IMG/VR virus record: IMGVR_UViG_3300031726_000030
Coordinates: 1 to 32,904 of that record
Origin: a virus
Lineage: Duplodnaviria; Caudoviricetes
Length of the DNA stretch: 32,904 nt
Direction: 5' to 3' (one strand)
The notes under the pieces are model-generated. The model saw nothing but the letters and a program-made list of their open reading frames with translations, had not been told where the DNA came from and made no database searches. Both the position numbers and the translations under genes were made by a program. Below, one piece after another: positions 718 to 29,618 of the stretch (within the stretch, counting starts at the first letter, position 1; each line of letters opens with the position of its first letter).

Positions 718-996
718 TTAATCCGCATACATACTAAGCATTTCCGCGACCGCTTCCTCTTCCGTCTCATACGGCCCGCTCCAATCAGTGCAATCCATAT
801 AGCCTGGTGCTGAGAGACGCGAGAAATAGCCCGCCTCGTTATCTTCATCATCTTCATTCTGGAATTCACCAGCCATGAAGCTTTGCACGTCTGGCAGCAT
901 GAATCCATCATTCAATTCAGCCAGACTATTTTCTACTTCTTCCACCGTCCAGCCAAGGATCTTGGCGATTGTTTCGAGCTGTTGATAGGTTAACAT
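718..996 (-). CDS. acidic hypothetical phage protein, first gene of leftward transcript
   Basis: 92-aa D/E-rich ORF with a strong AGGAGG RBS. C-terminal segment GYFSRLSAPGYMDCTDWSGPYETEEEA. Confidence 0.8.
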   Translation of the reverse strand: MLTYQQLETIAKILGWTVEEVENSLAELNDGFMLPDVQSFMAGEFQNEDDEDNEAGYFSRLSAPGYMDCTDWSGPYETEEEAVAEMLSMYAD

Positions 997-1020
997 GGGA
1001 TGCCTCCTGATTTAAAATCA

Positions 1021-1036
1021 TGCACCAAGTGTGCCA
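1021..1036 (-). promoter_or_regulatory. sigma54-type promoter for the leftward genes
   Basis: Minus strand reads TGGCACACTTGGTGCA (GG-N10-GC; consensus TGGCACG-N4-TTGCW). The predicted start site falls just before the AGGAGG RBS of 718..996. Confidence 0.65.
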
Positions 1037-1061
1037 TGTCGCAAGTCTAATGTAATCAATG

Positions 1062-1188
1062 GTGACGCAATGGGGCAGTGACGCAACGCGGCGTTGTGCA
1101 ACGCTGGAAATATGACAAATGAAAAAATAAGTTAAAAGGGCACTGAGACTTAATAACTCGTGACGCATTACGGCATGAAGTGACGGAG
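1062..1188. repeat. GTGACG(CA) direct repeats, candidate activator-binding sites
   Basis: GTGACGCAA at 1062 and 1078, GTGACGCAT at 1160, GTGACGGAG at 1180. Confidence 0.5.
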
Positions 1189-1237
1189 CGCGGCTTTTGA
1201 GGGTTTGGATGAAAAGTGATTTTAAGCTGAGAGTGTG

Positions 1238-1469
1238 TGAAAGGGGCTGAAAGACTAAGGATCAATGGGTGAAAGAAAGTTAAAAGCATACATCAAGCTG
1301 TGAGGTAGCCTTTCAGGCCTTTCACCCCTTTCACCCCTGAAAGGCCGACTTTCTAACTTTTCCTATATTTTATTTTTTCTCTCTATCTTGTATTATACAA
1401 CATTATTATTTTCCCTAATGTATCCGTAAAGAATAAGTATATGAAAGGGATGAAAGGTCTAAGCTTTCA
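1238..1469. repeat. TGAAAG iteron-like repeat cluster flanking an AT-rich tract, candidate replication origin or terminus signal
   Basis: TGAAAG at 1238, 1248, 1270, 1338, 1442, 1451. Reverse complement CTTTCA at 1310, 1319, 1328, 1464. Very AT-rich segment at about 1350-1441. Confidence 0.65.
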
Positions 1470-1596
1470 TGGGATTTACAAACCATAATGAGTGCATGAT
1501 ATGGTCTGCAAGCCCCTGAATGTTGATATACCGTGCTGTATAGCAGTATGCGGGGCGCTAGGCACGAGGCGAGGGACGAACGCTAATAAGCATGAA

Positions 1597-1741
1597 TGGC
1601 ATGACGATTGCATGGCAAGACTTGGCACGAGCATTGCATCAAGCAACTTGGCACGTTATTCGCTAGACAAGAGTTTTGGCATTATCGTTGCTTATCGCCA
1701 AGCTCGATTCGGCTGACGAATGAATTGGCGCGATCTATGCT
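1597..1741 (+). promoter_or_regulatory. tandem array of five sigma54 -24/-12 motifs
   Basis: TGGCATGACGATTGCA (1597), TGGCACGAGCATTGCA (1623), TGGCACGTTATTCGCT (1649), TGGCATTATCGTTGCT (1677), TGGCGCGATCTATGCT (1726). All keep GG-N10-GC. Confidence 0.8.
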
Positions 1742-1954
1742 TGACAAACGGGTCATGCACAAAATGAGCCAAGAGACCCTGGGGTGGTAGTTTTCGCCTG
1801 TGCCTGGTGGTGGGGTGAAGTGCTTGAATTTTACCGCCGTCGCGCATACCCCAGGCCCTACGCAATATACGAAGACTTTCGTAGCATTTCCTTTAAAATC
1901 CCCCTACCCCCCGCTGTAGTTTTGACTTACACTCCAGACATTCGTGGAGGCCCC

Positions 1955-2140
1955 ATGGCTGTGATCAAGAAGTCTGGAAGCTACAAGGGCAAGTCAAATG
2001 AGCTTGGACACGGTGGCCGCGCCGCTCAGATGCGTGATGCAGGCGTCCCAGGAGGCGTGATCGGCGCCATTGCTCGGCGTGAGGGCGCCGCTCCTGGAGG
2101 CCCGAATTACCACGGGAAGAAGGCCAAGAAGGGGAAATAA
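1955..2140 (+). CDS. small Lys/Gly-rich basic protein (61 aa)
   Basis: ATG at 1955 with a GGAGG RBS is a better start than the track's 1784. Sequence MAVIKKSGSYKGKS...GKKAKKGK. Stop overlaps the next start (TAATG). Confidence 0.8.
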   Translation: MAVIKKSGSYKGKSNELGHGGRAAQMRDAGVPGGVIGAIARREGAAPGGPNYHGKKAKKGK

Positions 2141-2679
2141 TGCCGCGAGAGAAGCCCCTCCCGGACTTTTCTCCGGACTTCGAAGCCTCGTATCGTGAGG
2201 TCTTCACCACCCGCGACGGTTATTCTCTGACGCCAGCGCAGCGAGCTAAAGCCAAGAAGGAAGCCTATACCGAGTGGCTTGAAGACTTAAAAGCAGACGA
2301 AATCCCCGAAGATCCCATCGCAGATCCAGCCGACTCACCTGCCGAGGCCCTGGAAAAAATCGTCTCGCATTCCCTAAAGTCCATGACCCCATCAGATGCC
2401 ATCAAGCATCGTTCCCAGCTTTTACGGTTCGCTGGGGATACTGTCCTTCAGGATCGTAAGGCCAAGATTGAGAAGCAGTCTCAAGCCTCAGGTCTGGCGA
2501 CGATCATGGAGCTTTTTCGGCAGGCGGCGTCCGGGGAAGGCAAGCGCGGGCCAGGATGGATCGACGCCGTGATGCTACCGGCCCTCAGCATGACGGAACA
2601 GGCCGAAGCGGCTGTAGATGTCATCGAAGGCCTTCAAATCGCTCCTGACCCCCTTTCCGCTCAACGGGAGGCCATGTGA
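2140..2679 (+). CDS. putative terminase small subunit
   Basis: 179-aa helical-looking ORF immediately upstream of TerL and coupled to it (GTGA overlap). Function assigned by position only. Confidence 0.5.
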   Translation: MPREKPLPDFSPDFEASYREVFTTRDGYSLTPAQRAKAKKEAYTEWLEDLKADEIPEDPIADPADSPAEALEKIVSHSLKSMTPSDAIKHRSQLLRFAGDTVLQDRKAKIEKQSQASGLATIMELFRQAASGEGKRGPGWIDAVMLPALSMTEQAEAAVDVIEGLQIAPDPLSAQREAM

Positions 2680-4202
2680 GTGCCTACGTCGATCAAGACG
2701 ACAAGGACTACTGGGAACGCTTTCAGAGCGCGACGGTGGTTCGGATGGCCCTTGACCCGGTGGAAACCGCCGCGAAACTCTTCGGAAGGCTCTCGGAGAA
2801 ACAGAAGGAAATCGTTGGTTTTGAAGAGGATGAAATTTTCCTCGGGGGTGGCGCCGGGTCGGGCAAGACCCGAGGCGTCATAATGGCGTGGGCGGCCCCG
2901 GCCTTTGAGTTCCAGGCCCGAGGGTTCAAATACGACGCCCTGGCCATCCGGCGCACGTTTCCGCAACTCAAGGAGATCATCGCACTGGGCAAGGAGATGC
3001 TCCTGCCCCTCGGAGCGACTTGGCACGAGGCCAGCAAGACATTTATTTTACCAGGCGGGTCGAGTCTGGAGTGTGGTTACTGTGAGCGTGATGATGATCG
3101 CTACCAGTATACGGGCCGTGCGTGGGCGCTGATCTTCGTGGATGAAATCCAGCGTTATGCTACGCCGGTTTTTTACGATTGGATCTTCAGTCGTCTCCGG
3201 GCGCCTATCAAGGAAATCGCGGGGAAGCTGTGGCGGCTCCCGCTGCGCGTCTTCTCGACGGCCAATCCCAAAGGGCCAGGCAACCACTGGCTCAGGAAGC
3301 GGTTTATTGACACGACAGGCGTCAATGGGGGCGTGACCACGCGCACGGTGGACACTGTGACGCCAGAAGGCGACCCTATCACCGTGACTCGCCGCGTCCG
3401 GTTCCAGCACAGCACCGTATTGGATAATCCGTGGCTTAGAAACACGGATTACGTCCGAAACCTGATGCTCCTGCCTGAAGCGGATCGCCGGGCGCTCCTG
3501 GAAGGTGACTTCTACATCGTGGAAGGCGCCTTTTTCAGTGAGTTTAACCGTAAAATCCATATCGTGAAGACGTTCAAACCGCCTGCGGACCTATCTTTGA
3601 TCAATGCGGGGGATTGGGGGACGGCGAAGCCCTCTCATTTTGGGTGGATGCAGGAGCTTTCCAACGGGGAATTCCACGTTTTCAGCGAGTATTCCACGCG
3701 GGACGCCGAAGACTGGAGCAAGGGAACCTGGCGAAATGCGACGGATGTCGCTGAAGACTTGATCCGCATCGAGCATCGGCAGGCCTACGACGTATCCGAG
3801 CGATGGTTGGACTCTGCCTGCTGGGCGGATGAGGGCACGGGAACCAACGTAGGCGAGATTTTCCAGATGAAAGGTTTGTTCTTCCAGAAGTCGGTGAAGG
3901 GCCGCAATCTCAAGGCCCGCAACCTGCGGGAACTGATGAAAGTGACCAACGGAAGTTCGCGGCTGAAGATTCATGACCAATGCAAATACCTGATTTGGGA
4001 GATTGAAAACCTTTTGACGGATGAACAGGACCCCAGCCGGTGGGACGAGCGCATGTCGGATCATGGCGTGGACATGCTCCAATACGGAACGGCGCGAAAC
4101 ATCATTGCCTTGGGCGGGGATGTTCTTCACCATCAGAAACAAGAGGCTTACCAGGCGAATCGTGCCAAGATGGCAGCTATGCGAAAGCGAGGAACGGCAT
4201 GA
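2676..4202 (+). CDS. terL: terminase large subunit
   Basis: Walker A GGGAGSGKT, Walker B LIFVDE, coupling motif STANP, RNase H-like nuclease acidic motifs AGDWG and DHGVD. Confidence 0.95.
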   Translation: MSAYVDQDDKDYWERFQSATVVRMALDPVETAAKLFGRLSEKQKEIVGFEEDEIFLGGGAGSGKTRGVIMAWAAPAFEFQARGFKYDALAIRRTFPQLKEIIALGKEMLLPLGATWHEASKTFILPGGSSLECGYCERDDDRYQYTGRAWALIFVDEIQRYATPVFYDWIFSRLRAPIKEIAGKLWRLPLRVFSTANPKGPGNHWLRKRFIDTTGVNGGVTTRTVDTVTPEGDPITVTRRVRFQHSTVLDNPWLRNTDYVRNLMLLPEADRRALLEGDFYIVEGAFFSEFNRKIHIVKTFKPPADLSLINAGDWGTAKPSHFGWMQELSNGEFHVFSEYSTRDAEDWSKGTWRNATDVAEDLIRIEHRQAYDVSERWLDSACWADEGTGTNVGEIFQMKGLFFQKSVKGRNLKARNLRELMKVTNGSSRLKIHDQCKYLIWEIENLLTDEQDPSRWDERMSDHGVDMLQYGTARNIIALGGDVLHHQKQEAYQANRAKMAAMRKRGTA

Positions 4203-6336: not shown

Positions 6337-7248
6337 ATGGCCCAGCTATTCACACCTACCCCGATGGATTTGGATCTCGGCTTCAATGGCGAAGAAGACG
6401 AGTCGGATTTGAACGGTGCCGCCAGTGGCACGGAAGACGACGCCCCTGAACCTATTTTGCCCCCTGCTCCTGAAGCCCCTGCCTCAACCCCTGCTCCTGA
6501 GCCCCAGACCCCTCCAGGAACGCCGGAAGCTCCTGCTCCGGTAGTCCAGACCCCCGCAACGCCTCAGACGCCTCCTGTGCCCCATGTCGAGCCATCCTTG
6601 GCCGACATTCTGCGGAACATGGAAGCGCAAGCCTCTCGCCAGACTCAGATCCTTGAACGCGCCATTCCCCATCCTGAAATCCCGGCACCCGGACCGAAGC
6701 CTCTTCCTCCCATTCCTGAAAAATACAAGGGCGTGTTGGACGAGGATACGCTGCGGGGTGCCCAAGTGGTCATGGATGCTTTGGGGATCACGGCTGATTT
6801 GGAGGAACTGAAGACCTTCCGCCAGGCTGCGACTCAGAAAGACAATGCCACTTCCGCTCGGGACATGATTCTCGGGCAGGTTCCAGAAATGAGAGATCAA
6901 GCCTTCCAGGATGAGGTCGCCGCCGAGATGACGCGCACCTTGGATGCCCTGGGAGTGCCTAACGAGATGCGGGGCCAGTTCCTGAACCCTGTTCTTGTCG
7001 TGCAAGCCGGGAATGCGGTCAAAGCCCGCCGAAGCCAGAATGCAACCGCTCCGCAAGGAGGCGCTGCACCCGTTCCTTCCATCACTCAGGCTCTTGCTTC
7101 CCGCGCAGGCGGAGAAACGCAGAGCGAGCCGGTGGCTGCGAGCGTAACTGATACTTCAGAGCAGCCAGTCGATTGGATGTCGATGTCCGAAGAGGACTAC
7201 GCCAAGCGGCAAGCTGCCATTCTCCGGAAGCAAAACGGTTCCTGGTAA
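6337..7248 (+). CDS. capsid scaffolding protein
   Basis: Acidic and P/A/E-rich N-terminus, helical middle, C-terminal DWMSMSEEDYAK capsid-binding-type motif. Lies directly before the MCP. Confidence 0.8.
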   Translation: MAQLFTPTPMDLDLGFNGEEDESDLNGAASGTEDDAPEPILPPAPEAPASTPAPEPQTPPGTPEAPAPVVQTPATPQTPPVPHVEPSLADILRNMEAQASRQTQILERAIPHPEIPAPGPKPLPPIPEKYKGVLDEDTLRGAQVVMDALGITADLEELKTFRQAATQKDNATSARDMILGQVPEMRDQAFQDEVAAEMTRTLDALGVPNEMRGQFLNPVLVVQAGNAVKARRSQNATAPQGGAAPVPSITQALASRAGGETQSEPVAASVTDTSEQPVDWMSMSEEDYAKRQAAILRKQNGSW

Positions 7249-16121: not shown

Positions 16122-17117
16122 ATGGATTCCCCGACCATCTATCCCATGCGCTTTCCCAGCATTCCTGCTGAGCAACGCCCGAGTAGCATCAGTGATCTCT
16201 TGCCATCTACCTACATGGGCCAGCCGAGTCCCTTCAACGCTTCCATGCAGCAAGTGGGACAGATGCTCCAGGCCAAGCGAGCGGACGCTGATCAAGCGAC
16301 TCAGGCGGCGTTGCATTTTGGCCCTTCAGTAGCACCCGGTCAGATCGCCGCCTTGAATGATTACTTATTCAAGCGCGGTGCCCAGCCTTATGGGGGCGTC
16401 ATGGATACTCAGAATCCAGGTTCGACGCTTCAGGTTCCTGGTGGCGATACGGCAACTCCATTCAATACTGGTGGTCAGGTAGCTGATCAGACGGCGGCTG
16501 AGACGGCGGCGGCTCTTGCTGCAAAGCAGGAAGCGGCCAAGGCAGCTCAGAGAATTCAGCTTCAGCGATTGAACCAGCAGGCCTCTCAATTCGAGCAACG
16601 GACCAAGGATCGAGCGGCGGCGTTGCTCCAGTCGAAAGTCATTCAGGACCGGAACGATCAGCGAATGCGAATGTTGGCGCACGAGAAGCTGACTTTCCAG
16701 GGTCAGAAACTCCAGACGTTCAACGCGGCTCAGGGCATTCATTCTGCGGCTGCAACGGCGTTCGGGAACGCCAACAAAACTCAGAGTCTTATCTCTCAAA
16801 AAGAAAAGGAAATGGCCACGAATTATTCGATGGGGCCTGATGAGAAACAGAAAGCGATGGATGAACTGGCGACGTTGCATTCGCAGGCGGAAGCTGAAAA
16901 TGAGCGAGGCAAGGCGCTTAGCGCTCAGGCTGAAGGGCTTTTGAACGGCCTCTCAGGCACTCAACCTGGGCCTCCTGCTCCAAAACCGATTCCTTCGACT
17001 TTGTTCACGGATGCTGGGAAGAATCCTCGCTTCCCGAATGCGGCCTATGGCACGATGAACGGCCAGCCTGGATGGTATGTGAAGGATGCTCAAGGGAATA
17101 AAACTAAGGTGGAATGA
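16122..17117 (+). CDS. internal virion / DNA ejection protein
   Basis: 331 aa, A/Q-rich and helical-looking. AGGAGG RBS. Position within the ejection cluster. Confidence 0.65.
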   Translation: MDSPTIYPMRFPSIPAEQRPSSISDLLPSTYMGQPSPFNASMQQVGQMLQAKRADADQATQAALHFGPSVAPGQIAALNDYLFKRGAQPYGGVMDTQNPGSTLQVPGGDTATPFNTGGQVADQTAAETAAALAAKQEAAKAAQRIQLQRLNQQASQFEQRTKDRAAALLQSKVIQDRNDQRMRMLAHEKLTFQGQKLQTFNAAQGIHSAAATAFGNANKTQSLISQKEKEMATNYSMGPDEKQKAMDELATLHSQAEAENERGKALSAQAEGLLNGLSGTQPGPPAPKPIPSTLFTDAGKNPRFPNAAYGTMNGQPGWYVKDAQGNKTKVE

Positions 17118-20100
17118 TGCCCCTCAAGCTGGATGCTGAAGGATTTCCTATCGCGGAAGCCCCAAAGGTGGACGCGGAAGGATTTCCTATTGCTGCTCCG
17201 GCCTCAGTTGTTCCTCCTGATTTCGCAGCCTACAAAGCCTCTCAACAGCCCGCGCCTTATGAAGAAGGCAATTCTGAATTCGCTCCCGTTGTCCCTGGTG
17301 AGCAGTCGAGTCCCTCCGTGGCTCCGAGTCTCCCATCTGCTGCTGGGCTTCTCACGAAGCTGAAGGCGATCCCTGGCCGCTTGGCTGCTTACGCCACCGA
17401 GAAGGGCCAGGAAACGGTGGCCGCTCAGCAAGCTCAGCTTCAGAAGATGGGGCCGCTGAACTATGCCTTTTTCCAGGGCGGTCCTGAATTGGCTCTGGAA
17501 GCCGGGAAGTCAGTGGTTGGGAAGGCTCACAAGCTTTTCACGGCGCTCTCCCCGAACCGCGCCAAGGAAAATGCCCAGTGGGCTGAGAGCGATATGCGGG
17601 ATTTGCTCAAGGAAGTCGGGGACAAGGTTCCGACTCCGGAGCAGATGGATCGTTTCCGCCAGCGCCACGCCTACGCCGAGCAGATGTGGGGGCTCTCCGA
17701 GAAGGAGCGCGGGGCTCGCCAGCAAGCCGTCCAGGGCTTCCAGGAGCGCATGGACAAGGCGACCCTACCGGGAACCCCAGCCGCGAGGCTTGTAGGTGGC
17801 ATGGCGCCTCTTGCGGCTCAGGCCGCACTGGCTCCTGGAACCATTCCGATAGAGGCAGGCATCAACGCTGTAGCGACCGGCGATTTGAACAATCCGACTT
17901 ACGAGCAGACGACCGGCCAGCAGATCAAGGAAGGGCTCTCAGGGTATGGCTTCGGCAAACTGATGATGGCGGGCGTCCCTGGCGTTCCGATTGCCCGAGC
18001 CTTGCAAGGGGCAGGCGTGAGCCCGGTTCCTGCGAACCTTGCCGGGTTGGGGGCGACTTCGGTTGTCATGACCCAGGGAGGCCATCAGCTTGAGCGCTAC
18101 CTGACTACGCCTCACGGAGATATCCCAGCGGCCCCAGGCGTGGAGGACTACGCCCGTGACTTTGCCACTCAGCTAGGACTCGGGGCTCATACCCTGGGCC
18201 AGCGCCTAGTGGCTCCTGCCGGGGCACCGGCTGTCGGTCAGCCTTCGGCGCCCGTGGATATGGGCGTGGTGCCTCGAGAAACGCCGCAAGCGCCCGGGAG
18301 CCTCAATGCCCCGCCTGTGGAGTCCAGGCCCCTTCCTGAGCCTCTGGCGGCTTCCCATGAGCCTGTCCGGAGTCTTGCCCAAGTAGGCGAGCGGCTGGGC
18401 TCCCTTAATCCCCTCGGTCCCGAGTCCCCACCCTTCATCCAGCCTCAGACCTACACCCGGCCCCTCACGGCTGAAGCCGAGCCTTCCAAGGGCCTCGTAA
18501 CGCGAGGCATTCGAGTTGAGCCTTCTCCCACTGAGGGCTTGCCAGATGCCTACGGCCTCGCGCCTGTGGAGACGATTCCCAAGTCACCTACGGCCTACAA
18601 GACCCTCCACGAACACGAAGCCGAAATGTCTCATGTGAAGCAGCAGCGTCAAGCTGACCGTGAGGCTTTCGACTCAGGGCCCTTGGCAGCTACCGCCGAT
18701 ATCAGCCCTGAGCATCATGCCGAAGCGGATCGGATCATTGAGGCTCGACACATCGTTTCAACATCTGAACAGCGGGCGCTTGAGGCTGAACGACAGATCA
18801 ACGAGATTCAATTTAAAAACGCAAAGACTCAAGCTGATCGCTTCAAGGAAGGCTTACCTCCACTTGAAGCCAAGGATCTGATTCAAACTCCTGATAAGTT
18901 GACCATTCAAGCCAAGAATCGCATGGCTCCAGACGATCCGCTTCGTGTCCTGGCGGCTTCAGAGCCCGAGCATCCCGATGCTCAGCGAGCGCTTCAGGTG
19001 GCTCAGGAGCAGCAGCAAGCTCTGGCGCCTGAGTATGCAGCCGGAACGCCCAAGGATGAAGGCGGCGACATCTTCCACGCGAGGCGCGTTGCCATCAAGA
19101 ACGCGCCGGATGAGCCTAGCCTGTGGGCGAAGACCAAAGAGTTCTTTGGCGGTGAGCCTACGATGCCTCCTGAGACGGGTATCCCTGGATCGAGCAAGCG
19201 GCCCCTTCAGAAAGATCCTTCAGCCAAGAAGCGTCTCTACGAGACGGTGGATGGCCCTGTAGGTCCGACTGTGATCTACAAGGGCGAACCGGGTGATACG
19301 TCTTTCAAGATCGTAGGCCGGAGCGGGAAGATCCAGGAAGCAGATATCACCAGCCGCAGGGAATCCACCAAGGATGAAATCACTCACGCCACTTCTCAGG
19401 TTGAAGTGCCCGGTGAGATTGATCCCGAGACTGGCGTCCAGGCATCGCCCCACGTTGAGATTCATCCTGAAGAAGGGATTCAATTCTCCCGCAACGCTGT
19501 GGCTTCAGCTACGCAGGCACGAGAAACAGCGCGGGATGCCATTCGTGGGCGCCAGGTTTTGGATAATCTCAAGTCAAATCCCAAGATGTTCCTGGAAGGT
19601 TCGCGCCCGACTGATCCCAAGAAAAGCGACTGGCGTTCTGTTTCCGAGCTTCCAATTAGCAATCAAGCGAAGATGCGGTTAGCTCCAGGCGGCAAGGAAG
19701 CCTACGTTCGCTCGGATGTAGCAAATACGCTTGTTGAATACTTCGGGACTTCTGGCGCGAAGGAAGCGCACTTCTTCTCTGGCCTGGATCGGATGAGCCG
19801 CCAGTGGATTGAGCGTGGGTTCATGACGAATCCCTTCATCCATTTCCCGAATCAGTTTGCCCATGGCCTTGGAGCGTTGGCTGGTGAAGGCCTGACGGGG
19901 AAGCAGGCTTCAGAGGCGCTGGCTCACGCTTACCGTGAGGGTTCGAATCCGAATTCAGAATATGTGAATCGAGCCAAGGCCGCAGGCGTGAAGCAGATGT
20001 CAGAAGGCCGCGTGTTTGGCCAGGATGAAAACATGACTGCTCACGAAGCGGCCACGCAGCGCCTTGAGAAAGCCTTGGGGCACGAGCCAGGAACGCTTGG

Positions 20101-23108: not shown

Positions 23109-23504
23109 CTATGCGTGGGGATCGAGTGTAAGAAGGAACCGCATGGCGTCAATCCATTCAACGTCCGTGGGAGTGATCATCTGCTGAACGAACGTCCCGG
23201 CTGCATCCGTGCCGGTGAAAAGCTGAAGCTCGGTGGTGCTGATGACGTAGCGCAGACAACTGATGCCCATGCTCTCGAAGTTCTGAGCAATGGCCAGGAC
23301 GCCTGCCCCAGCAGAAGCGGTGGCCGCGCTGATGAACATGGCGATATGAACGGCGCCGCTCTTGTCGGTGGCGAGCATCAGACAAGAGGCGTCATTGGTG
23401 GCGCCTACGATTTGCCCGAGGTCGAAGCCTCGGGCCTTGATCTTGCCAGTGGTGGCGACAAGCAATGCAAGAGCAGCAGCGGCACTTGCGGGAGCAGCGG
23501 CCAT
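23109..23504 (-). CDS. hypothetical protein (131 aa), probable paralog of 23679..24074
   Basis: GGAGG RBS, biased codon usage, shared segments with 23679..24074. Confidence 0.75.
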   Translation of the reverse strand: MAAAPASAAAALALLVATTGKIKARGFDLGQIVGATNDASCLMLATDKSGAVHIAMFISAATASAGAGVLAIAQNFESMGISCLRYVISTTELQLFTGTDAAGTFVQQMITPTDVEWIDAMRFLLTLDPHA

Positions 23505-23678
23505 TTAATCCTCCGTCTTGGTGAGCGGTTCCATGGTTTCGGGGTTCACTTCGACCCCATCGACAATCAGTCTGCGTCCCCACGGCTTGCACTCGCGCTT
23601 CACTTCGGGGATAGCTTCGCCTTCTCCAGTCACCTTGAGGGGCGGCTGAAGGAAGGCGTCTTTGCTGTCCTTGGTCAC
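23505..23678 (-). CDS. small hypothetical protein (57 aa), absent from the ORF track
   Basis: GTG directly follows the upstream TAA. MTKDSKDAFLQPPLKVTGEGEAIPEVKRECKPWGRRLIVDGVEVNPETMEPLTKTED fills the gap exactly. Confidence 0.6.
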   Translation of the reverse strand: MTKDSKDAFLQPPLKVTGEGEAIPEVKRECKPWGRRLIVDGVEVNPETMEPLTKTED

Positions 23679-24074
23679 TTAACCGACCATGGGGGGCTGA
23701 ACGTAGTCGAGCAGGTTCAGGATCTCGGTGGCGAGGCCGATGTCATCCGTCGCCACGCGAACGCCGGGGGTGGCGACCACGAGAGGATAGACGCAATTCA
23801 CATCGCCCTTCGCCAGGCAGATTTCCGTGGCGGTGAAGTTGGCATTCACCATGTTCATCCCGCCGTTGCCCAGGGCGTCTACGCCCGCCTTGACGATGGG
23901 AAGGGCCACGGTGCCCCACGCAATGCCAAACTGACGGTTGCCGGGGTCCTTGCCCAGCACGAAGGGGCCTACGGTGCCACCAACGGTCGGAGCGATGTCC
24001 TGAGCCGTGCAGGTATAACCGCGAGCGTTCAGAAAGGTAGCGAGAGTAGTCGCTGTCGTGGGAGTGGCTGCCAA
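23679..24074 (-). CDS. hypothetical protein (131 aa), probable paralog of 23109..23504
   Basis: TTG start with AGGAGG RBS. Strong C/G bias at third codon positions. Confidence 0.75.
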   Translation of the reverse strand: MAATPTTATTLATFLNARGYTCTAQDIAPTVGGTVGPFVLGKDPGNRQFGIAWGTVALPIVKAGVDALGNGGMNMVNANFTATEICLAKGDVNCVYPLVVATPGVRVATDDIGLATEILNLLDYVQPPMVG

Positions 24075-24125
24075 AGGAGCCTCCTGGATGATGTGGCGCG
24101 ACGGCCAGATACCTAAAGGATGGGC

Positions 24126-24638
24126 CTAATTTCCCTTGGGTGCCAAGGAAATGTTGCCTTTGGACTGCTGAAATTCGACCCAAGCATCATTTTGAGCGGG
24201 CATCAGGTCAAAGAGGACAGGGTAGCGCTCTCGGAACATCCAGAGAACCCCCGTTTCGAAGCAGGCGTCCAGGATCAAAGTAGGTGCCGGGAGATCCCTG
24301 TAGTTCACCAGGACTGGGGAAGTCTTGGCCTCCGCGCTTTCTTCCTGGCCATAGCAGTAGCCTTGTGCCAGGAGGCTCTCGCAGTAGAGGTCATGGAATT
24401 CGGACATGGAAAGCCGTTCCTCAATGATCCGCTGGGCAAAGACCGTGAGGGGCATTTTGGCAGCCATCGGAAGCTCCATCCAGGAATCAGGCCCCGTGAC
24501 GCCTAGCTGCTCGCCCACAGCTACGGCGAGGTCATGACCGGCTGCGGCAAGGGCGTGGTAGTCGGGTCGTTCCACGATGAAGCCTGCGGCCTTCCAGGCG
24601 TTGACGGTGACTTTGGGAATGATGAAGAGATCGGTCAT
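24126..24638 (-). CDS. RyR (ryanodine receptor repeat) domain protein
   Basis: HDLYCESLLAQGYCYGQEESAEAKTSPVLVNYRDLP matches the RyR pattern H..W......GW.YG...D...K.HP.LVPY..LP, with substitutions. Confidence 0.7.
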   Translation of the reverse strand: MTDLFIIPKVTVNAWKAAGFIVERPDYHALAAAGHDLAVAVGEQLGVTGPDSWMELPMAAKMPLTVFAQRIIEERLSMSEFHDLYCESLLAQGYCYGQEESAEAKTSPVLVNYRDLPAPTLILDACFETGVLWMFRERYPVLFDLMPAQNDAWVEFQQSKGNISLAPKGN

Positions 24639-25015
24639 GCGAATGCCTCTTTGAGAAGAAGATCGTGGATCTGCTCGGCCAGTTCATAGATCGTAATGAC
24701 TGGCTTCACTCTCGGCCAGAGTAACCGATATTCGACGTTTCGATCCTGAGCATCTCGGACATCATGGGCGTTCAGCACCAGAACACCAAAGGATTTCATT
24801 TGCTCCTGGCGCTTGATCTGGATCGCGGTGAGCGGTTCTTTCCGCTGATGAGGGGCGACGATCTTCAGTTCCACCCAGCCGGTATTGCCGTGCTTGGCAA
24901 CGAAGAGGTCAGGGACGCCTCGGTTGGTTGGCCCCGTCTCGATGGCCAGCGCGAGACAGCTTCGTGCTTCCAGGGCCTTTCTCAAGTCTTTGCTGAAGCG
25001 ATGCTCGGGTTTCAT
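24635..25015 (-). CDS. VRR-NUC / PD-(D/E)XK nuclease, Holliday-junction-resolvase-like
   Basis: Start 25015 by ATGA overlap with the helicase stop. MKPEHRF, GVPDL, WVELK, LTAIQ motifs. Confidence 0.85.
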   Translation of the reverse strand: MKPEHRFSKDLRKALEARSCLALAIETGPTNRGVPDLFVAKHGNTGWVELKIVAPHQRKEPLTAIQIKRQEQMKSFGVLVLNAHDVRDAQDRNVEYRLLWPRVKPVITIYELAEQIHDLLLKEAFA

Positions 25016-26409
25016 TCTTCTTCTCCTGTATAGGCCAGGAACGCTCCCAGCGGGTCTTTGAGAAATTCGGCACTGACATCGTGCTTGGCTTTCAGATCCT
25101 TGATGATCTTGCGGTCCACCGGGCCGCATTCAAAATCAGTGTAGAAGCAAGTCTTGGCTTGACCGATTCGGTGGATCCGATCCTCTTCCTGAAGCCGATG
25201 CTCCAGATTAAAACCGTTGCTGAAAAAGAACATCCGGCTTGTGACGGTGAGCGTGATGCCCGTGCTTCCCGTCTGATTGGAAATCAGGTAACGTTTGCTT
25301 GGGTCTTCCATGAATTGTTTGATGACATCGGCCCGTGTGCGGGCATCCGTTTTGCCGTAGTAGGTGAGCGCCGCGTCTCCAAGCGCCTTGGCGCAAGCCT
25401 CGATCTCATTGACGAACGCACAGAAAATCACGACTTTCTCGTCTCCCAGTTCCTCAATCAGTTCCAGGATTCGATCTAGTTTGGGACTGCCTCCGGTCAT
25501 GGTCTTTTGCGTATAGGGGTCGAAGCCCCCGCTGATCTGTCGCAGGCGAATGAGCCGCGTCACAGCCGCTTCAGCCGCCGCCGCAAGGCCTCCATCCACG
25601 CCCATGAGCCGGGTGAGTTCGTCAATGCTCTCTTTCCGAACGGCGTGATAGAGCGCCTTCTGTTCGGGCGTCATCATGACGATTTCGTTGATATAGATTT
25701 TCTCAGGCAGATCCAAGCACTCTTCCTTGAGGTGCCGGATCATGTGAGGTGCCAGGAGTTCCTGGAGCCAGTCCTGGTTTTGATAGCCTACGATTTTTCT
25801 TCCCTCGAACCCTCCCATTTTGCAGAAGGTCGAGCGGAATCCATAGAACGATTTCCAGCGCGTGACGCCTACACCCAGGAAATTGAACTGAGAGTAGAGA
25901 TCCTCAATCCCCTTCGTGATTGGCGTCCCCGTGAGGATGCGGCGATACTCAGCCTTGCGGCCCTGGACGATCAGATACCGGGTGCGAAGCGCCTGGCCGT
26001 TCTTGATTCGTTGACTCTCGTCCACCACCATCATCACTCGGCGCGTGTCGAGAATTTCGGTCATCAAGGCACGGGCCTTGGGACTCGTGAAGCCGTCCAC
26101 GTTGAAGCAGAAGATTTGAAGTTTGGTAGCGTCATAAGCTGGAACCTTGAATGGTTTCTCAGCGTAGTAAATTCGAGCATCCACCTCATGCTTCGGAAAA
26201 ACATTTGGAACTTCGTTTCGCGCCCAGTTAGCGTGAACGCCATTGGGCGCGACCACGATCATCGCGTCTAGCTTGCCATCGTTGTAGAGTTTCTTGGCCT
26301 CAAAGAGCGTGGTGATTGTCTTACCTAGCCCTTGCTCGTCAAAATTACCGTAGGCTTCCTTGCCGTAGAAGCGCTTGATGATTTCCTTTTGGTGAGTCAG
26401 GAGTTTCAT
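25012..26409 (-). CDS. SNF2-family (SF2) helicase
   Basis: DEQGLGKT, VVDESQ, LTGTP, GITLT, QEEDRIHRIGQ. Confidence 0.92.
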   Translation of the reverse strand: MKLLTHQKEIIKRFYGKEAYGNFDEQGLGKTITTLFEAKKLYNDGKLDAMIVVAPNGVHANWARNEVPNVFPKHEVDARIYYAEKPFKVPAYDATKLQIFCFNVDGFTSPKARALMTEILDTRRVMMVVDESQRIKNGQALRTRYLIVQGRKAEYRRILTGTPITKGIEDLYSQFNFLGVGVTRWKSFYGFRSTFCKMGGFEGRKIVGYQNQDWLQELLAPHMIRHLKEECLDLPEKIYINEIVMMTPEQKALYHAVRKESIDELTRLMGVDGGLAAAAEAAVTRLIRLRQISGGFDPYTQKTMTGGSPKLDRILELIEELGDEKVVIFCAFVNEIEACAKALGDAALTYYGKTDARTRADVIKQFMEDPSKRYLISNQTGSTGITLTVTSRMFFFSNGFNLEHRLQEEDRIHRIGQAKTCFYTDFECGPVDRKIIKDLKAKHDVSAEFLKDPLGAFLAYTGEEE

Positions 26410-26648
26410 TCGACATCCGGATTCTGAAGCGGGAAATCAGTTCCGAGTAAATGCGTTCGACCTTTCACTTGTCCACAGAGATCGCATTTGCGGCCCACGA
26501 AATAGCGGTCTTCATGATCCCAAACCCAACGTCCATCAAAAGGTCTCCATTCAGCGCAACGTGGGCGAGTTTCAATCCACACAGAAAAGTGGCTTCGATT
26601 GATTCTGAACAGATGAGCGAAACGATGGCGAAGAGTAATTTTGTTCAT
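26406..26648 (-). CDS. hypothetical protein (80 aa)
   Basis: ATGA overlaps at both ends. Contains CDLCG. Confidence 0.65.
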   Translation of the reverse strand: MNKITLRHRFAHLFRINRSHFSVWIETRPRCAEWRPFDGRWVWDHEDRYFVGRKCDLCGQVKGRTHLLGTDFPLQNPDVE

Positions 26649-29098
26649 GAAATAACTCCGCGAAAATAGAACTTTCCGTTAGCAGCAAACAAACTAGCCT
26701 CGATGCAATACGCCTGCCCGACTTCCAACTTCTCAAGCTGAGCCCGATATTGCTCAACCGTCTTGCCTGAGCAGAAAATTTCCAGCGATCCAGTCTCGTC
26801 CCCGATTCGCATGATCCAGCGAGCGCCAGTCTTACCGGCAAACTCGTGGATGTAGTCCAGGACGCCCACAAAATGAACGGCTTGATTCTCCAGACCATGA
26901 TTGATGTCGGGAAGATTGTGCTTCTTGCGGAGGTCGTCTACTTTGTCCATCGTGTCGTAAACGGAAGGCAGAGCGATAGCTTTCTTGCAGCCTTCACTGA
27001 TGTTGTTCCCTGCGATTTGCTTCATGTAGGTTTCTGCACGGCTGGGTCCGATACCCGGCTTGTCGCACCAGCCCCCGTAGAGCTTTCCGTCCAAAACCCT
27101 CCAATCGGAATAAGAGAGAAACGTATCGAAGATGACAACTTCAAAACCTCGGTTGCGAGCCTCTCGGATCAATTCAATCCCCTGCTCCGTCCCGGTCGTG
27201 TGGTTCAGGCAAGTAGCATAGAACGCCAGCGGATCAACCCGCTTCGCTCGCAGACAGGCCCAGGAGAGCCACGCATAGGCTACAGCATGGCTCTTGTTGA
27301 ACAGATAGGCTCCACAGCCTAGGATGAAGTCCCAAGCCTCCAAAAGGGCCTTCTTGGGATGGGACGACAGGCCCTGCTTCAGATACTCGGCCTTATAGAC
27401 TTCCAATCCTGCGGCTCCCTGGGATTTGGCAATCGCCTTCCGGAGCTTCGTCACCGTGGTATCGGGCAGCCCGAGCCCTTTGAAGAAGGCCATGACCTGC
27501 TCCTGATAGATCATCAGGCCCTTGGTTTCTGTCAGATAGGGGGCGATCAAGGCTGGCGCGTGGGGCTTCTCGCCGTAGAGCATGAGCCGCTTGTAGGCTT
27601 CCGCCACGCCAGCCGCCAGCGGGCCGGGCCGGGCAATGGCACTGATGATCGCCAGATCATTGAATTCCTGGGGTGGAACTTGGTGGGCAATGGCTCGGAG
27701 TGCGCCGCCTTCAAACTGGAAGATCCCTTGCCAACGCCCCGCCTGGGCATCCACAAAGTCTTCCGGTTCGGCCTTCATGTCCACTTTCTCTGTCCAGGGG
27801 AAGTCCCGGAGAATGGTTAGGGTCCGGAGGCCCAGGCAATCCAGCTTCAGGAGCCCCAGGGCCTCAGCATCCCGCATGTCGATCTGAGCCACGCCGTTTT
27901 CCACCCGGCAGTATTTCGAAAGGGATTCTCCAGGGGCAATCAAGACGCCCGCTGCGTGTTGCCCCAGGGCCTTTGTGGTGCCTTCCAGGGGCAGGAGGCT
28001 AGGGATGGAGGGGTGAATGTCCTTGAGGCCATCTAGCGCCTTTTGAAGCGTATCAGGCGGACCTTCTTCCCCCGCGAGGCGTGTCTGAATCCGATCCCTA
28101 ACACAATCGCCCAATGACTGGGGCAACGCAAGCGCCCGTAGACCATCTTGGAGAGCGGCTTTACCCGCCCGTGTAAGAACGGTTCCAACTCTTGCCACGC
28201 TTGCTGAACCATAGATATCTTCAAGGTGAGTGAATATTTCATCGCGGCGCTCGTCTTCAAAGTCCAGATCAATGTCCGGCATGTCGGTTCGGGAAGGGTC
28301 AAGGAACCGTTCAAAGAGAAGGTCGTGCTTGATGGGGTCTACCTCGGTGATGCCCAGCAGGTAGGCTACCAGGGAGCCCGAAGACGATCCCCGGCCAGGG
28401 CCTTGAGCGATGCCGACTGAATTCGCCCATTGACAGACCTCCGTTACGATCCGGAAGTAGCCTTCGAATCCTTTGGAATGAATGACGGTCAATTCGTGGC
28501 AAAGGCGTTCTGAATAAGGACTTTTATTCAATCCGAGATTGATAAGAGTCCCGCTACACACTTGGGCGATATTGATGCCAGTAACTTGGGGAGGCTTGGC
28601 TTTTGGAATTCGCACCGATTCAAATTGATCCTCAAGCGGGCGTTCTCGATTTGGAAAAACGTAGTAATCACACAAGTGCCTCGGATAAATGGCGTAGGCG
28701 TCATTGGGCCAGCGAAGTCCATGAAGGATTTCTTGATTCTCAAAAATATAAGCCGGACTCTGAAGAGAAGGCTCAAGCAAAACGATGTTGTCTGAGACTT
28801 GATCCCCGGCCTTCATACTATAGAGTTCCTGGAGTCCGTCCTGAGTGCGAGCCAGCGCTACACGGGGCAAGGTGCCTTCCCGGAATGGCCAAGCGAATTC
28901 CATCCCAAAGATCGGTTCAATCTTGGCCTCAAGGCAGGCGTCTTGGAATTCCCGATGACCGAAGCAATTCGTATCCGTCAGGGCGATCGCTTCCATCTTG
29001 TTCTGAACGGCGAAGGACACGAGATCCTTCACGGTGCCGGTGCCTTTCGGCTTGCCATTCTCGCAGGAATACTCGGTTCGGGTTCGGAGATGAAGCAT
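26645..29098 (-). CDS. dnaE: family C DNA polymerase (DNA polymerase III alpha-like), compact
   Basis: HLRTRTEYS, ALTD, GPGRGSSSGSLVAYLLGITEVDP, FERFL, MPDIDLDF, HAAGV, KLDCLGL, RPGP, YQEQVM, FNKSHAVAY. Start 29098 has a GAGG RBS; the alternative start is 29116. Confidence 0.95.
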   Translation of the reverse strand: MLHLRTRTEYSCENGKPKGTGTVKDLVSFAVQNKMEAIALTDTNCFGHREFQDACLEAKIEPIFGMEFAWPFREGTLPRVALARTQDGLQELYSMKAGDQVSDNIVLLEPSLQSPAYIFENQEILHGLRWPNDAYAIYPRHLCDYYVFPNRERPLEDQFESVRIPKAKPPQVTGINIAQVCSGTLINLGLNKSPYSERLCHELTVIHSKGFEGYFRIVTEVCQWANSVGIAQGPGRGSSSGSLVAYLLGITEVDPIKHDLLFERFLDPSRTDMPDIDLDFEDERRDEIFTHLEDIYGSASVARVGTVLTRAGKAALQDGLRALALPQSLGDCVRDRIQTRLAGEEGPPDTLQKALDGLKDIHPSIPSLLPLEGTTKALGQHAAGVLIAPGESLSKYCRVENGVAQIDMRDAEALGLLKLDCLGLRTLTILRDFPWTEKVDMKAEPEDFVDAQAGRWQGIFQFEGGALRAIAHQVPPQEFNDLAIISAIARPGPLAAGVAEAYKRLMLYGEKPHAPALIAPYLTETKGLMIYQEQVMAFFKGLGLPDTTVTKLRKAIAKSQGAAGLEVYKAEYLKQGLSSHPKKALLEAWDFILGCGAYLFNKSHAVAYAWLSWACLRAKRVDPLAFYATCLNHTTGTEQGIELIREARNRGFEVVIFDTFLSYSDWRVLDGKLYGGWCDKPGIGPSRAETYMKQIAGNNISEGCKKAIALPSVYDTMDKVDDLRKKHNLPDINHGLENQAVHFVGVLDYIHEFAGKTGARWIMRIGDETGSLEIFCSGKTVEQYRAQLEKLEVGQAYCIEASLFAANGKFYFRGVIS

Positions 29099-29180: not shown

Positions 29181-29618
29181 TCAGCGCACCTTGAATGATT
29201 CAACGCCCATGCCACAACTGGTGCAGAATCGAGAAGCAATCCTCACGGCTTCAATGGCATCGGCGCCTTTGGCGAGAGCCCCAAGCGCATAGTCGCGCCC
29301 GCTTCCCCACGCGGCGAATTTCTCTTCCACGATTTGCCGAAAAGGAAGCTGCTTGAAACAGAACGGCTTTCCTTTGGGCGGAACGACAATAAGGCGGACC
29401 CAGTTTTCCTTGTCAGCCTGAGACGCAGGCCACAAAGAAGGAGTGGCGCCATTCTTATACCACTCGACAAGAGCCAGACCGCGCTCATATTCCCCTGTGA
29501 AAGCAAGCACCGTGCTGTCTTCCAGCATGAAGATTTTCTTGGACTTCATTCGGAGATCGCCCTGCTGACCTTGGAGATCCGACGCAACTCTCTTGCCGTC
29601 CCAAACGACTACGCTCAT
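29181..29618 (-). CDS. HslV/proteasome-beta-like Ntn-hydrolase
   Basis: N-terminal MSVVVWDGKRVASD, KIF, AAWGSGRDYALGAL, AIEAVRIA...C..CG. Confidence 0.75.
   Translation of the reverse strand: MSVVVWDGKRVASDLQGQQGDLRMKSKKIFMLEDSTVLAFTGEYERGLALVEWYKNGATPSLWPASQADKENWVRLIVVPPKGKPFCFKQLPFRQIVEEKFAAWGSGRDYALGALAKGADAIEAVRIASRFCTSCGMGVESFKVR

Follow-up and report, generated by a model that had tools for sequence, protein, structure and literature searches.

The 32,904-nucleotide stretch analysed here (IMG/VR record IMGVR_UViG_3300031726_000030, hereafter the window) makes up most of a podovirus-like phage genome, with genes for a large terminase (TerL), an SU10-type portal and adaptor and a major head protein, and, on the opposite strand after these head genes, DnaE polymerase, SNF2 helicase and Pam3 gp33/gp34-like genes. 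Comparison with a 42.5-kb IMG/VR record (G001) revealed 0 differences across the 2,931 bases compared, and beyond the window that record also encodes a VapE-like primase-helicase, an endolysin and a holin, together with small leftward genes. Among the matches listed, 24 metagenomes contained the phage (23 from peat and 1 from permafrost) and no RNA data set did, and its TerL and capsid queries against INPHARED returned only matches below 60%, such that no close cultured relative was found there.

From left to right, the region around the array holds leftward genes, origin-like repeats, a variable slot, a conserved block and a small ORF, followed by terL with the likely terS in front of it. The features are as follows, with site scores given as the count of matches to 12 consensus positions rather than by a published weight matrix.

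718..996, minus strand: first leftward gene, 92 aa, from a viral family of unknown function
1021..1036, minus strand: lone sigma54-type site (10/12), missed by the original prediction
1062..1188, plus strand: four GTGACG(C/G)A repeats, located some 50-180 bp upstream of where the lone minus site is predicted to start transcription
1238..1469, no strand: ten TGAAAG/CTTTCA repeats, direct and inverted, with an AT-rich core, kept in relatives
1480..1785, no strand: variable repeat slot of about 300 bp that contains the array, drawn from comparison with relatives
1597..1612, plus strand: sigma54-type site 1 (11/12)
1623..1638, plus strand: sigma54-type site 2 (12/12)
1649..1664, plus strand: sigma54-type site 3 (11/12, with a TTCGC -12 box)
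1677..1692, plus strand: sigma54-type site 4 (10/12)
1726..1741, plus strand: sigma54-type site 5 (10/12)
1756..1771, minus strand: weaker site facing site 5 across 14 bp (9/12), likewise missed before
1786..1835, plus strand: conserved GGTAGTTT ... GAATTTTACC block in G-rich DNA, drawn from comparison with relatives
1955..2140, plus strand: small basic ORF without family match, first gene of the late operon
2140..2679, plus strand: likely small terminase gene (terS), assigned by position, without family match
2676..4202, plus strand: large terminase gene, terL (phrog_979, PF03237)

Atlas searches gave no name for the 92-aa gene or for the putative TerS, the latter being 61-64% identical to its counterparts in three relatives. 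Judged from its sequence, the TGAAAG/CTTTCA block is likely the replication origin, and the block at 1786..1835 is a candidate packaging-start region. The array itself was also considered as a set of replication iterons and rejected, as the iteron description fits the adjoining TGAAAG block at 1238-1469 and not the array. The origin-like block would likely serve the VapE-like primase-helicase, and its version in relative L004 is a GGAAAC variant. Elsewhere in the window, an HslV-family peptidase gene (29181-29618, minus strand) adjoins the DnaE polymerase gene, and the gene before the capsid gene, in scaffold position (6337-7248), has a weak Filo_VP35 Pfam match under the curated cut-off that is most likely chance. 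In the early region of G001 (about 16650-17210, equal to L128 9650-10210), frames that overlap one another encode tandem repeats rich in Pro/Gly and in Ala.

Five sigma54-type sites in tandem

The original prediction described a tandem array of five motifs, and our scoring recovers all of them as plus-strand 16-mers starting at 1597, 1623, 1649, 1677 and 1726 (spacings 26, 26, 28 and 49 bp). GG-N10-GC is kept in 5/5 sites and TGGCAYG-N4-TTGCW is exact in the first two; taken as sigma54-type sites, the five have the required spacing and match the TGGCAC...TTGCW consensus at 10-12 of 12 positions. According to the available text of PMC4591121, ChIP-verified E. coli sites include the deviations found in these five, e.g., the glnA-type TTCGC box. 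At a cut-off of 9/12 the best 150-bp cluster in the window held 5 sites, compared with 1 (169 cases), 2 (130) or 3 (1) in 300 dinucleotide shuffles, and 3 sites scored at least 11 where the shuffle mean was 0.26, confirming that the five-site array is real and far above chance.

The finer description of the array largely held. Pairwise identity is 0.77 in the boxes, 0.35 in the N4 and 0.33 and 0.40 in the flanks, in keeping with the claim that boxes are conserved and N4 and linkers variable; CAAG does recur in each linker (4/4, at 1616, 1640, 1668 and 1699, plus strand, 1616..1702), and the late operon, which had been placed about 210 bp downstream, has its first ATG after the array at 1955, 214 bp away. 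A degenerate sixth copy near 1560 had also been proposed, and this part fell away: the 1560..1575 segment (plus strand) reads GG-N10-GG, is missing the -12 GC, was rejected as a sigma54 site (it scores below 6/12 or lacks the GC) and resembles the AGGC(G)-type lineage repeats in the slot of relatives. Sites scoring 9/12, the score of the minus site at 1756..1771, are expected about 16 times by chance in the window. We also considered and rejected the array as a structured RNA or ssDNA hairpin, with an Rfam scan giving no match up to E = 1 and an ssDNA fold (z -1.45, equally good in 17/200 shuffles) that is unremarkable against shuffles.

Arrays and their period across collections

Strict tandem N4 pairs occur in an estimated ~320 IMG/VR stretches (120 stretches in 24 of the 64 parts of that collection) and in about 1000 metagenome stretches, compared with 1 IMG/VR stretch for a control with an N5 spacer and 2 for a reversed motif, which bears out the idea that the motif is under selection with sigma54 spacing. 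Head-to-head pairs contribute ~160 additional IMG/VR stretches, and 596 Gb of GTDB bacterial genomes yielded 33 stretches with strict tandem pairs, many of which are exact duplications of one site. One N4 was common to all copies in only 6 of 91 arrays. At 79 loci picked by homology to the 92-aa gene and not by motif, strong sites numbered 14 with N4, 4 with N3 and 3 with N5, and two pairs stood at 25-26 bp; across 26 whole records (a set without L057) the sites were mostly in one cluster and the reversed control gave zero.

Turning to cultured and described phages, 0 of 18 annotated phage records carried an array. For the other array-bearing TerLs, three of four matched cultured phages below 60% and that of L077 matched three pelagiphages at 64-65%, one of which (HTVC115P) has no site. 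Blastn with three natural arrays returned chance matches only, and a literature search, with most subscription literature outside its scope, found no paper on sigma54 arrays in phages.

Among the matches listed, distinct strict pairs by period numbered 1 at 24 bp, 20 at 25, 46 at 26, 42 at 27, 27 at 28, 24 at 29 and 4 at 30 (159 at 25-29 bp), and the head-to-head set, which had not been chosen for its same-strand spacing, gave 59 at 25-29 bp and 2 below 25. In the cryo-EM structure of the sigma54 closed complex, the modelled DNA begins near -33 and ends at -5/-9, a length of 25-29 bp (available text of PMC5505868), and because the period matches this span it suggests tiling with one complex per unit. 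Contrary to tiling by the holoenzyme are a 16-19 bp class of 22 distinct pairs and head-to-head pairs 2-5 bp apart. Over the whole collection the short periods comprise 1 pair at 16 bp, 7 at 17, 9 at 18, 5 at 19, none at 20-23 and 3 at 24. The suggestion that neighbouring sites lie on opposite helix faces fits the empty 20-23 bp class, for which helical phase could account equally well as a footprint limit, and so the part of it that goes beyond a plain footprint limit is inseparable from that limit.

Several arrays depart from the common layout. Those of L148, L149, L165 and L152 have short periods of 17-19 bp head to tail, on which the holoenzyme could not tile, and in G038 (L008), positions 23176-28201 hold twelve sites, eleven of them on one strand, spread across 5 kb with no single cluster. 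A Gemmatimonadota MAG contig holds three sites (L191 2497-2589) with no terminase seen and an adjoining PolB gene of the organellar/viral, protein-primed type.

Position relative to terL and exchange within the slot

A PHROG scan covered 136 proteins at 78 of 80 flanked loci, leaving out L042 and L066 as duplicates and one flank of L062, and placed terL no more than 3 kb away at 50 loci. With the window counted this gives 51 TerL proteins, which form 15 clusters at 35% identity with 31 of the 51 in one cluster. The array lies upstream of terL at 51/51 loci, at a distance of 198-2462 bp, and the tandem pair is co-directional with terL in 10 of them and opposed to it in 41. Many arrays alternate in direction, with sites facing each other. 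By tblastn, terL was found for 55 of 78 tandem arrays and for 39 of 73 head-to-head arrays (the two sets may overlap), and the array was upstream in every case (55/55 and 39/39), which is where terminase-recognition repeats would sit, at a packaging start upstream of terS-terL; the motif does not follow the terminase lineage as such repeats would, adjoining 15 TerL clusters and missing in kin with TerL 84-86% identical. No terL match was found within 3 kb at 11 of 34 full-flank tandem loci, the 1.5-kb flanks of the metagenome stretches were too short for terL (2/73 reached it), and 0 of 33 GTDB pairs were near terL, with several multi-site ones adjoining phage or integrase genes.

The G-rich DNA is one-sided as well. 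In the large clade G-runs occur on the terL side in 42/46 cases and on the far side in 1/38, and in the remaining clades in 14/40 and 3/35, respectively. We take G-rich DNA ahead of terS to be a marker of the packaging start, and the original placement of the array near a genome end is upheld to the extent that the array sits where an end is likely. Scanning the flanks with what we take to be DnaA-box and Fur-box motifs gave 0.33 versus 0.01 DnaA boxes per kb (9/77 loci) and 0.38 versus 0.03 Fur-like boxes per kb (11/77 loci) near arrays versus background, a comparison of non-coding DNA near the array with a far background of mostly coding DNA.

Within the phage's own lineage, we compared three distinct relatives that have upstream DNA (L004/L005, L006 and L007, with a duplicate row of L007 left out; L002 and L003 come without upstream DNA). 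Their TerLs are 84-86% identical to that of this phage and both blocks flanking the slot are kept, and the slot is filled with GTATTT at a 20-bp period (L006), GTATTT/AGGC (L004) or CCAGGC (L007). TGGC-N9-GC is absent from the plus strand of the slot in all three; the minus strand of L007 has two, one at 9/12. CAAG recurs in the slot repeats of the relatives as well as in the array linkers. Because these three relatives do without it, the array is dispensable in the lineage. Among the 20 loose-end rows listed, out of 45, five rows from peat strain variants, coming from 3 of 4 runs, keep GG-N10-GC with inner and linker bases changed. From these alignments the array appears to be maintained inside the species group and swapped outside it, and the contribution of this locus is a lineage comparison showing the slot retained while its motif changes. 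The original prediction took homologous regions without the GG-N10-GC spacing to point to a phage protein such as TerS; the three relatives go part of the way towards such a refutation, but the recurrence of the motif beside 15 TerL clusters speaks against a TerS site.

The slot repeats lie at L006 840-960, L004 3085-3290 and L007 3850-4040, with units of GTATTT, TAAATAGGC and CCAGGC. L004 also has a 10-bp perfect tandem repeat at 1-92, and the first early gene of this array-less relative (about 900-2310, minus strand) encodes an AAA-type ATPase with a weak PF00158 match below cut-off.

Binder and possible functions of the array

Seeing one 16-mer beside 15 terminase clusters yet missing in close kin, we find a conserved host factor indicated, and host sigma54 is proposed because it is a known protein with a matching consensus and spacing rule; we regard it as highly probable, on sequence grounds, that sigma54 of the host is the binder. 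The base preceding the motif was left unconstrained; 87% of array sites have C/T there, as do 30 of 42 intergenic-sense E. coli ChIP sites (available text of PMC4591121). A phage-coded RpoN or activator was considered and rejected: the RpoN DNA-binding domain was found in 0 of 48 phage records (46 with arrays and 2 relatives without), and an AAA activator domain gave one weak partial match over cut-off in the 48 and none in G001. The original prediction had seen no activator gene in the window, and this extends to the full 42.5-kb genome, which has neither such a gene nor a GAFTGA-like motif. Among GTDB genomes with a pair, rpoN was present in 26/32 (32 genomes for 33 loci, with L197 on the contig of L177); the base rate of 81% in the available text of PMC12316311 is no lower than this.

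Binding without transcription has precedent, in that the sigma54 holoenzyme binds silent E. coli sites without transcribing from them (available text of PMC4591121) and sigma54 without core enzyme can occupy some promoters (available text of PMC2715252). Tentatively, and short of an even chance, we read the array as silent docking sites for host sigma54 that act in cis at the packaging end. Host sigma54 would occupy the packed sites upstream of the terminase genes without starting transcription, and once bound would form a host-protein patch on the phage's own DNA at the probable packaging end, with the cut site placed, as we infer, in the G-rich block between the array and terS. By lambda-like polarity the array would be packaged last and enter first, and the bound protein would hold or shield that end as an entry ratchet or exonuclease block; alternatively, it would shape the origin/packaging region in the way that IHF acts at lambda cos. 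Any tight-binding protein would suit the slot, and this openness would explain the other repeats of the relatives and the DnaA-like and Fur-like boxes elsewhere. A broader form of the proposal, which we hold to be rather doubtful, is that unrelated phages share, at the end of their DNA that enters first, an interchangeable slot for loading host proteins, where sigma54 tiled at the footprint of one closed complex would be a non-transcribing clamp ratcheting in or capping the incoming genome; that DnaA, Fur and other boxes are alternative fillings of such a slot is a conjecture we would not lean on more heavily.

The same binder could serve a different purpose, as a decoy in trans in which 5-7 silent sites per replicating genome titrate host sigma54, damping the Psp, Rtc, flagellar and nitrogen regulons or freeing core polymerase, and this we judge unlikely though well worth weighing. 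Arrays are orientation-free and maximally dense as a decoy would be, the Fur-like and DnaA boxes enriched beside arrays in 77 loci are also titratable, the 17-19 bp class gives extra sites without co-occupancy, and decoy arrays are reported to function in a synthetic yeast system (PMC3322331). A decoy would not need a position upstream of terL with a one-sided G-run, however, nor would it lead one to expect unrelated repeats in the slot of relatives; next to the 135 chromosomal E. coli sites (available text of PMC4591121), another five would count for little before late infection, and the box enrichment contrasts non-coding with mostly coding DNA. We favour the action in cis over the decoy because the side relative to terL and to the G-run is fixed, because motifs are swapped within one slot, and because the array of the PolB-bearing L191 has, at a distance of about 20 bp, a contig end that terminates in a G-run (one case). 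Counting against the cis role, most of the non-coding DNA may simply lie ahead of terS, and one clade supplies 31/51 TerL rows; scattered sites (G038) and the three lone early-region sites of this phage that lie outside the window suit promoters or decoys equally.

If the likeness to sigma54 sites were accidental, the array could instead bind a phage protein (TerS, or an origin- or end-binding protein), an improbable reading to which the location at a packaging start, a slot motif that differs between relatives as a TerS site might, the CAAG shared by linkers here and in relatives, and close head-to-head pairs resembling dimer sites all lend something. It has to contend with an identical 16-mer beside 15 TerL clusters (<35% identity), with the loss of the motif in relatives whose putative TerS is 61-64% identical, with a fit to verified E. 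coli sites that extends to their deviations, and with an RpoN-like domain in 0/48 records. Quite improbable, too, are working activator-dependent promoters, with site 5 driving the late operon, the lone minus site the early genes and the upstream copies forming a loading queue. All five sites here do aim at the late operon 214 bp away, for which no sigma70-like site was found on the plus strand after 1018, phage YuA has a sigma54-like promoter (available text of bioRxiv 10.1101/2023.10.13.562163), and the lone site has a fitting ribosome site and ATG and GTGACG repeats at an enhancer-like place. Uniform orientation and free DNA to +1, as a promoter needs, are found only at site 5, the sole plus-strand array site with its downstream DNA free (if ever activated, its predicted +1 by -24/-12 geometry would be near 1752), and at the lone site; the predicted starts of sites 1-3 are overlapped by the next site. 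Adding to this, pairs run against terL in 41/51 loci, alternating arrays face one another, the phage encodes no activator, the lone site is missing ahead of three homologs, and the relatives, which have no such site, express this late operon too. It is very improbable that the array is a neutral remnant of repeats expanding in a changeable non-coding slot: rapid slot turnover, perfect-repeat arrays elsewhere (L125, L148) and the exact duplications among many bacterial pairs would suit that view, but boxes conserved against near-random N4 and linkers, controls about 100-fold lower and a narrow period band do not, and the controls largely refute this reading.

The original view that such packing is unlike ordinary independent promoters is borne out by the start-site overlap and by the mixed orientation across phages, and its proposal of a switch for the late operon is weakened by the pairs opposing terL and the many alternating arrays. 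A roadblock is weakened as well, since silent E. coli sigma54 sites left overlapping transcription unblocked (available text of PMC4591121). For the lone minus site at 1021-1036, which precedes AGGAGG (1008-1003) and the ATG at 996 of the 92-aa gene, sequence context allows that it may be a true activator-dependent early promoter, and the GTGACG repeats are a possible candidate enhancer for a host activator at this site only; the site is not conserved ahead of the three homologs of the 92-aa gene.

Among known systems, lambda cosB, upstream of terS-terL, has R1-R3 repeats that bind the phage's TerS and a single IHF site. Like it, the array would bring a host DNA-bending factor and a series of protein sites together next to the packaging start; unlike it, the repeats here match the host factor themselves and are free in orientation. 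By analogy, the array would act as a set of silent sigma54 sites in a position comparable to that of IHF at lambda cos; it qualifies neither as a group of ordinary promoters nor as repeats for TerS. Host proteins also act on first-entering DNA at the first-step-transfer/injection-stop repeats of T5 and in the polymerase-driven entry of T7, which requires active sigma70 transcription; T7 entry is an active pull, whereas a closed sigma54 complex only holds. Bacterial sigma54 sites share the consensus, the GG-N10-GC spacing and the tolerated deviations of the array (available text of PMC4591121); they are single, with tandem pairs near-absent (33 stretches), unlike a phage array tiled at 26-28 bp beside the terminase genes and without an activator gene. 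Pseudomonas phage YuA (P015) likewise uses host sigma54-type sequence, and the available text of bioRxiv 10.1101/2023.10.13.562163 describes one promoter with a mapped start and no array like the five sites here. In ICP1 the pac site lies in an ORF-less space near a predicted replication origin and the terminus has been mapped (available text of PMC7145576), so that, like the array, a gene-free stretch joins a virion terminus and a predicted origin; that text describes no sigma54 array, and the ICP1 terminus is mapped whereas that of the present phage is predicted.

How DNA entry ends and how incoming linear ends are protected are open questions for most phages. If the cis role is true, a sigma factor would be a structural DNA-end protein, and if the decoy is true, the array would be a naturally occurring DNA decoy for an alternative sigma factor. 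In either case the motif could serve, across hundreds of uncultured phages, as a pointer to genome ends and to hosts that carry rpoN.

Other elements recur beside arrays. Perfect DnaA boxes (19 boxes) lie less than 400 bp from arrays in L058 (~85-105), L018, L021, L027, L036, L052, L061, L076 and L082, and Fur-box-like palindromes adjoin the arrays of L033, L036, L039, L040, L043, L053, L054, L057, L067, L069 and L075, with further cases in L138, L143, L147 and L149. ParS-like sites occur in L046 and L069, and tandem AGTAAGTGCTCACTAAC-type repeats in L138, L145 and L153. In two rpoN-bearing deltaproteobacterial MAGs (L186, L193), possible cases of integrated elements for which the host is known, multi-site arrays stand beside large serine recombinase genes.
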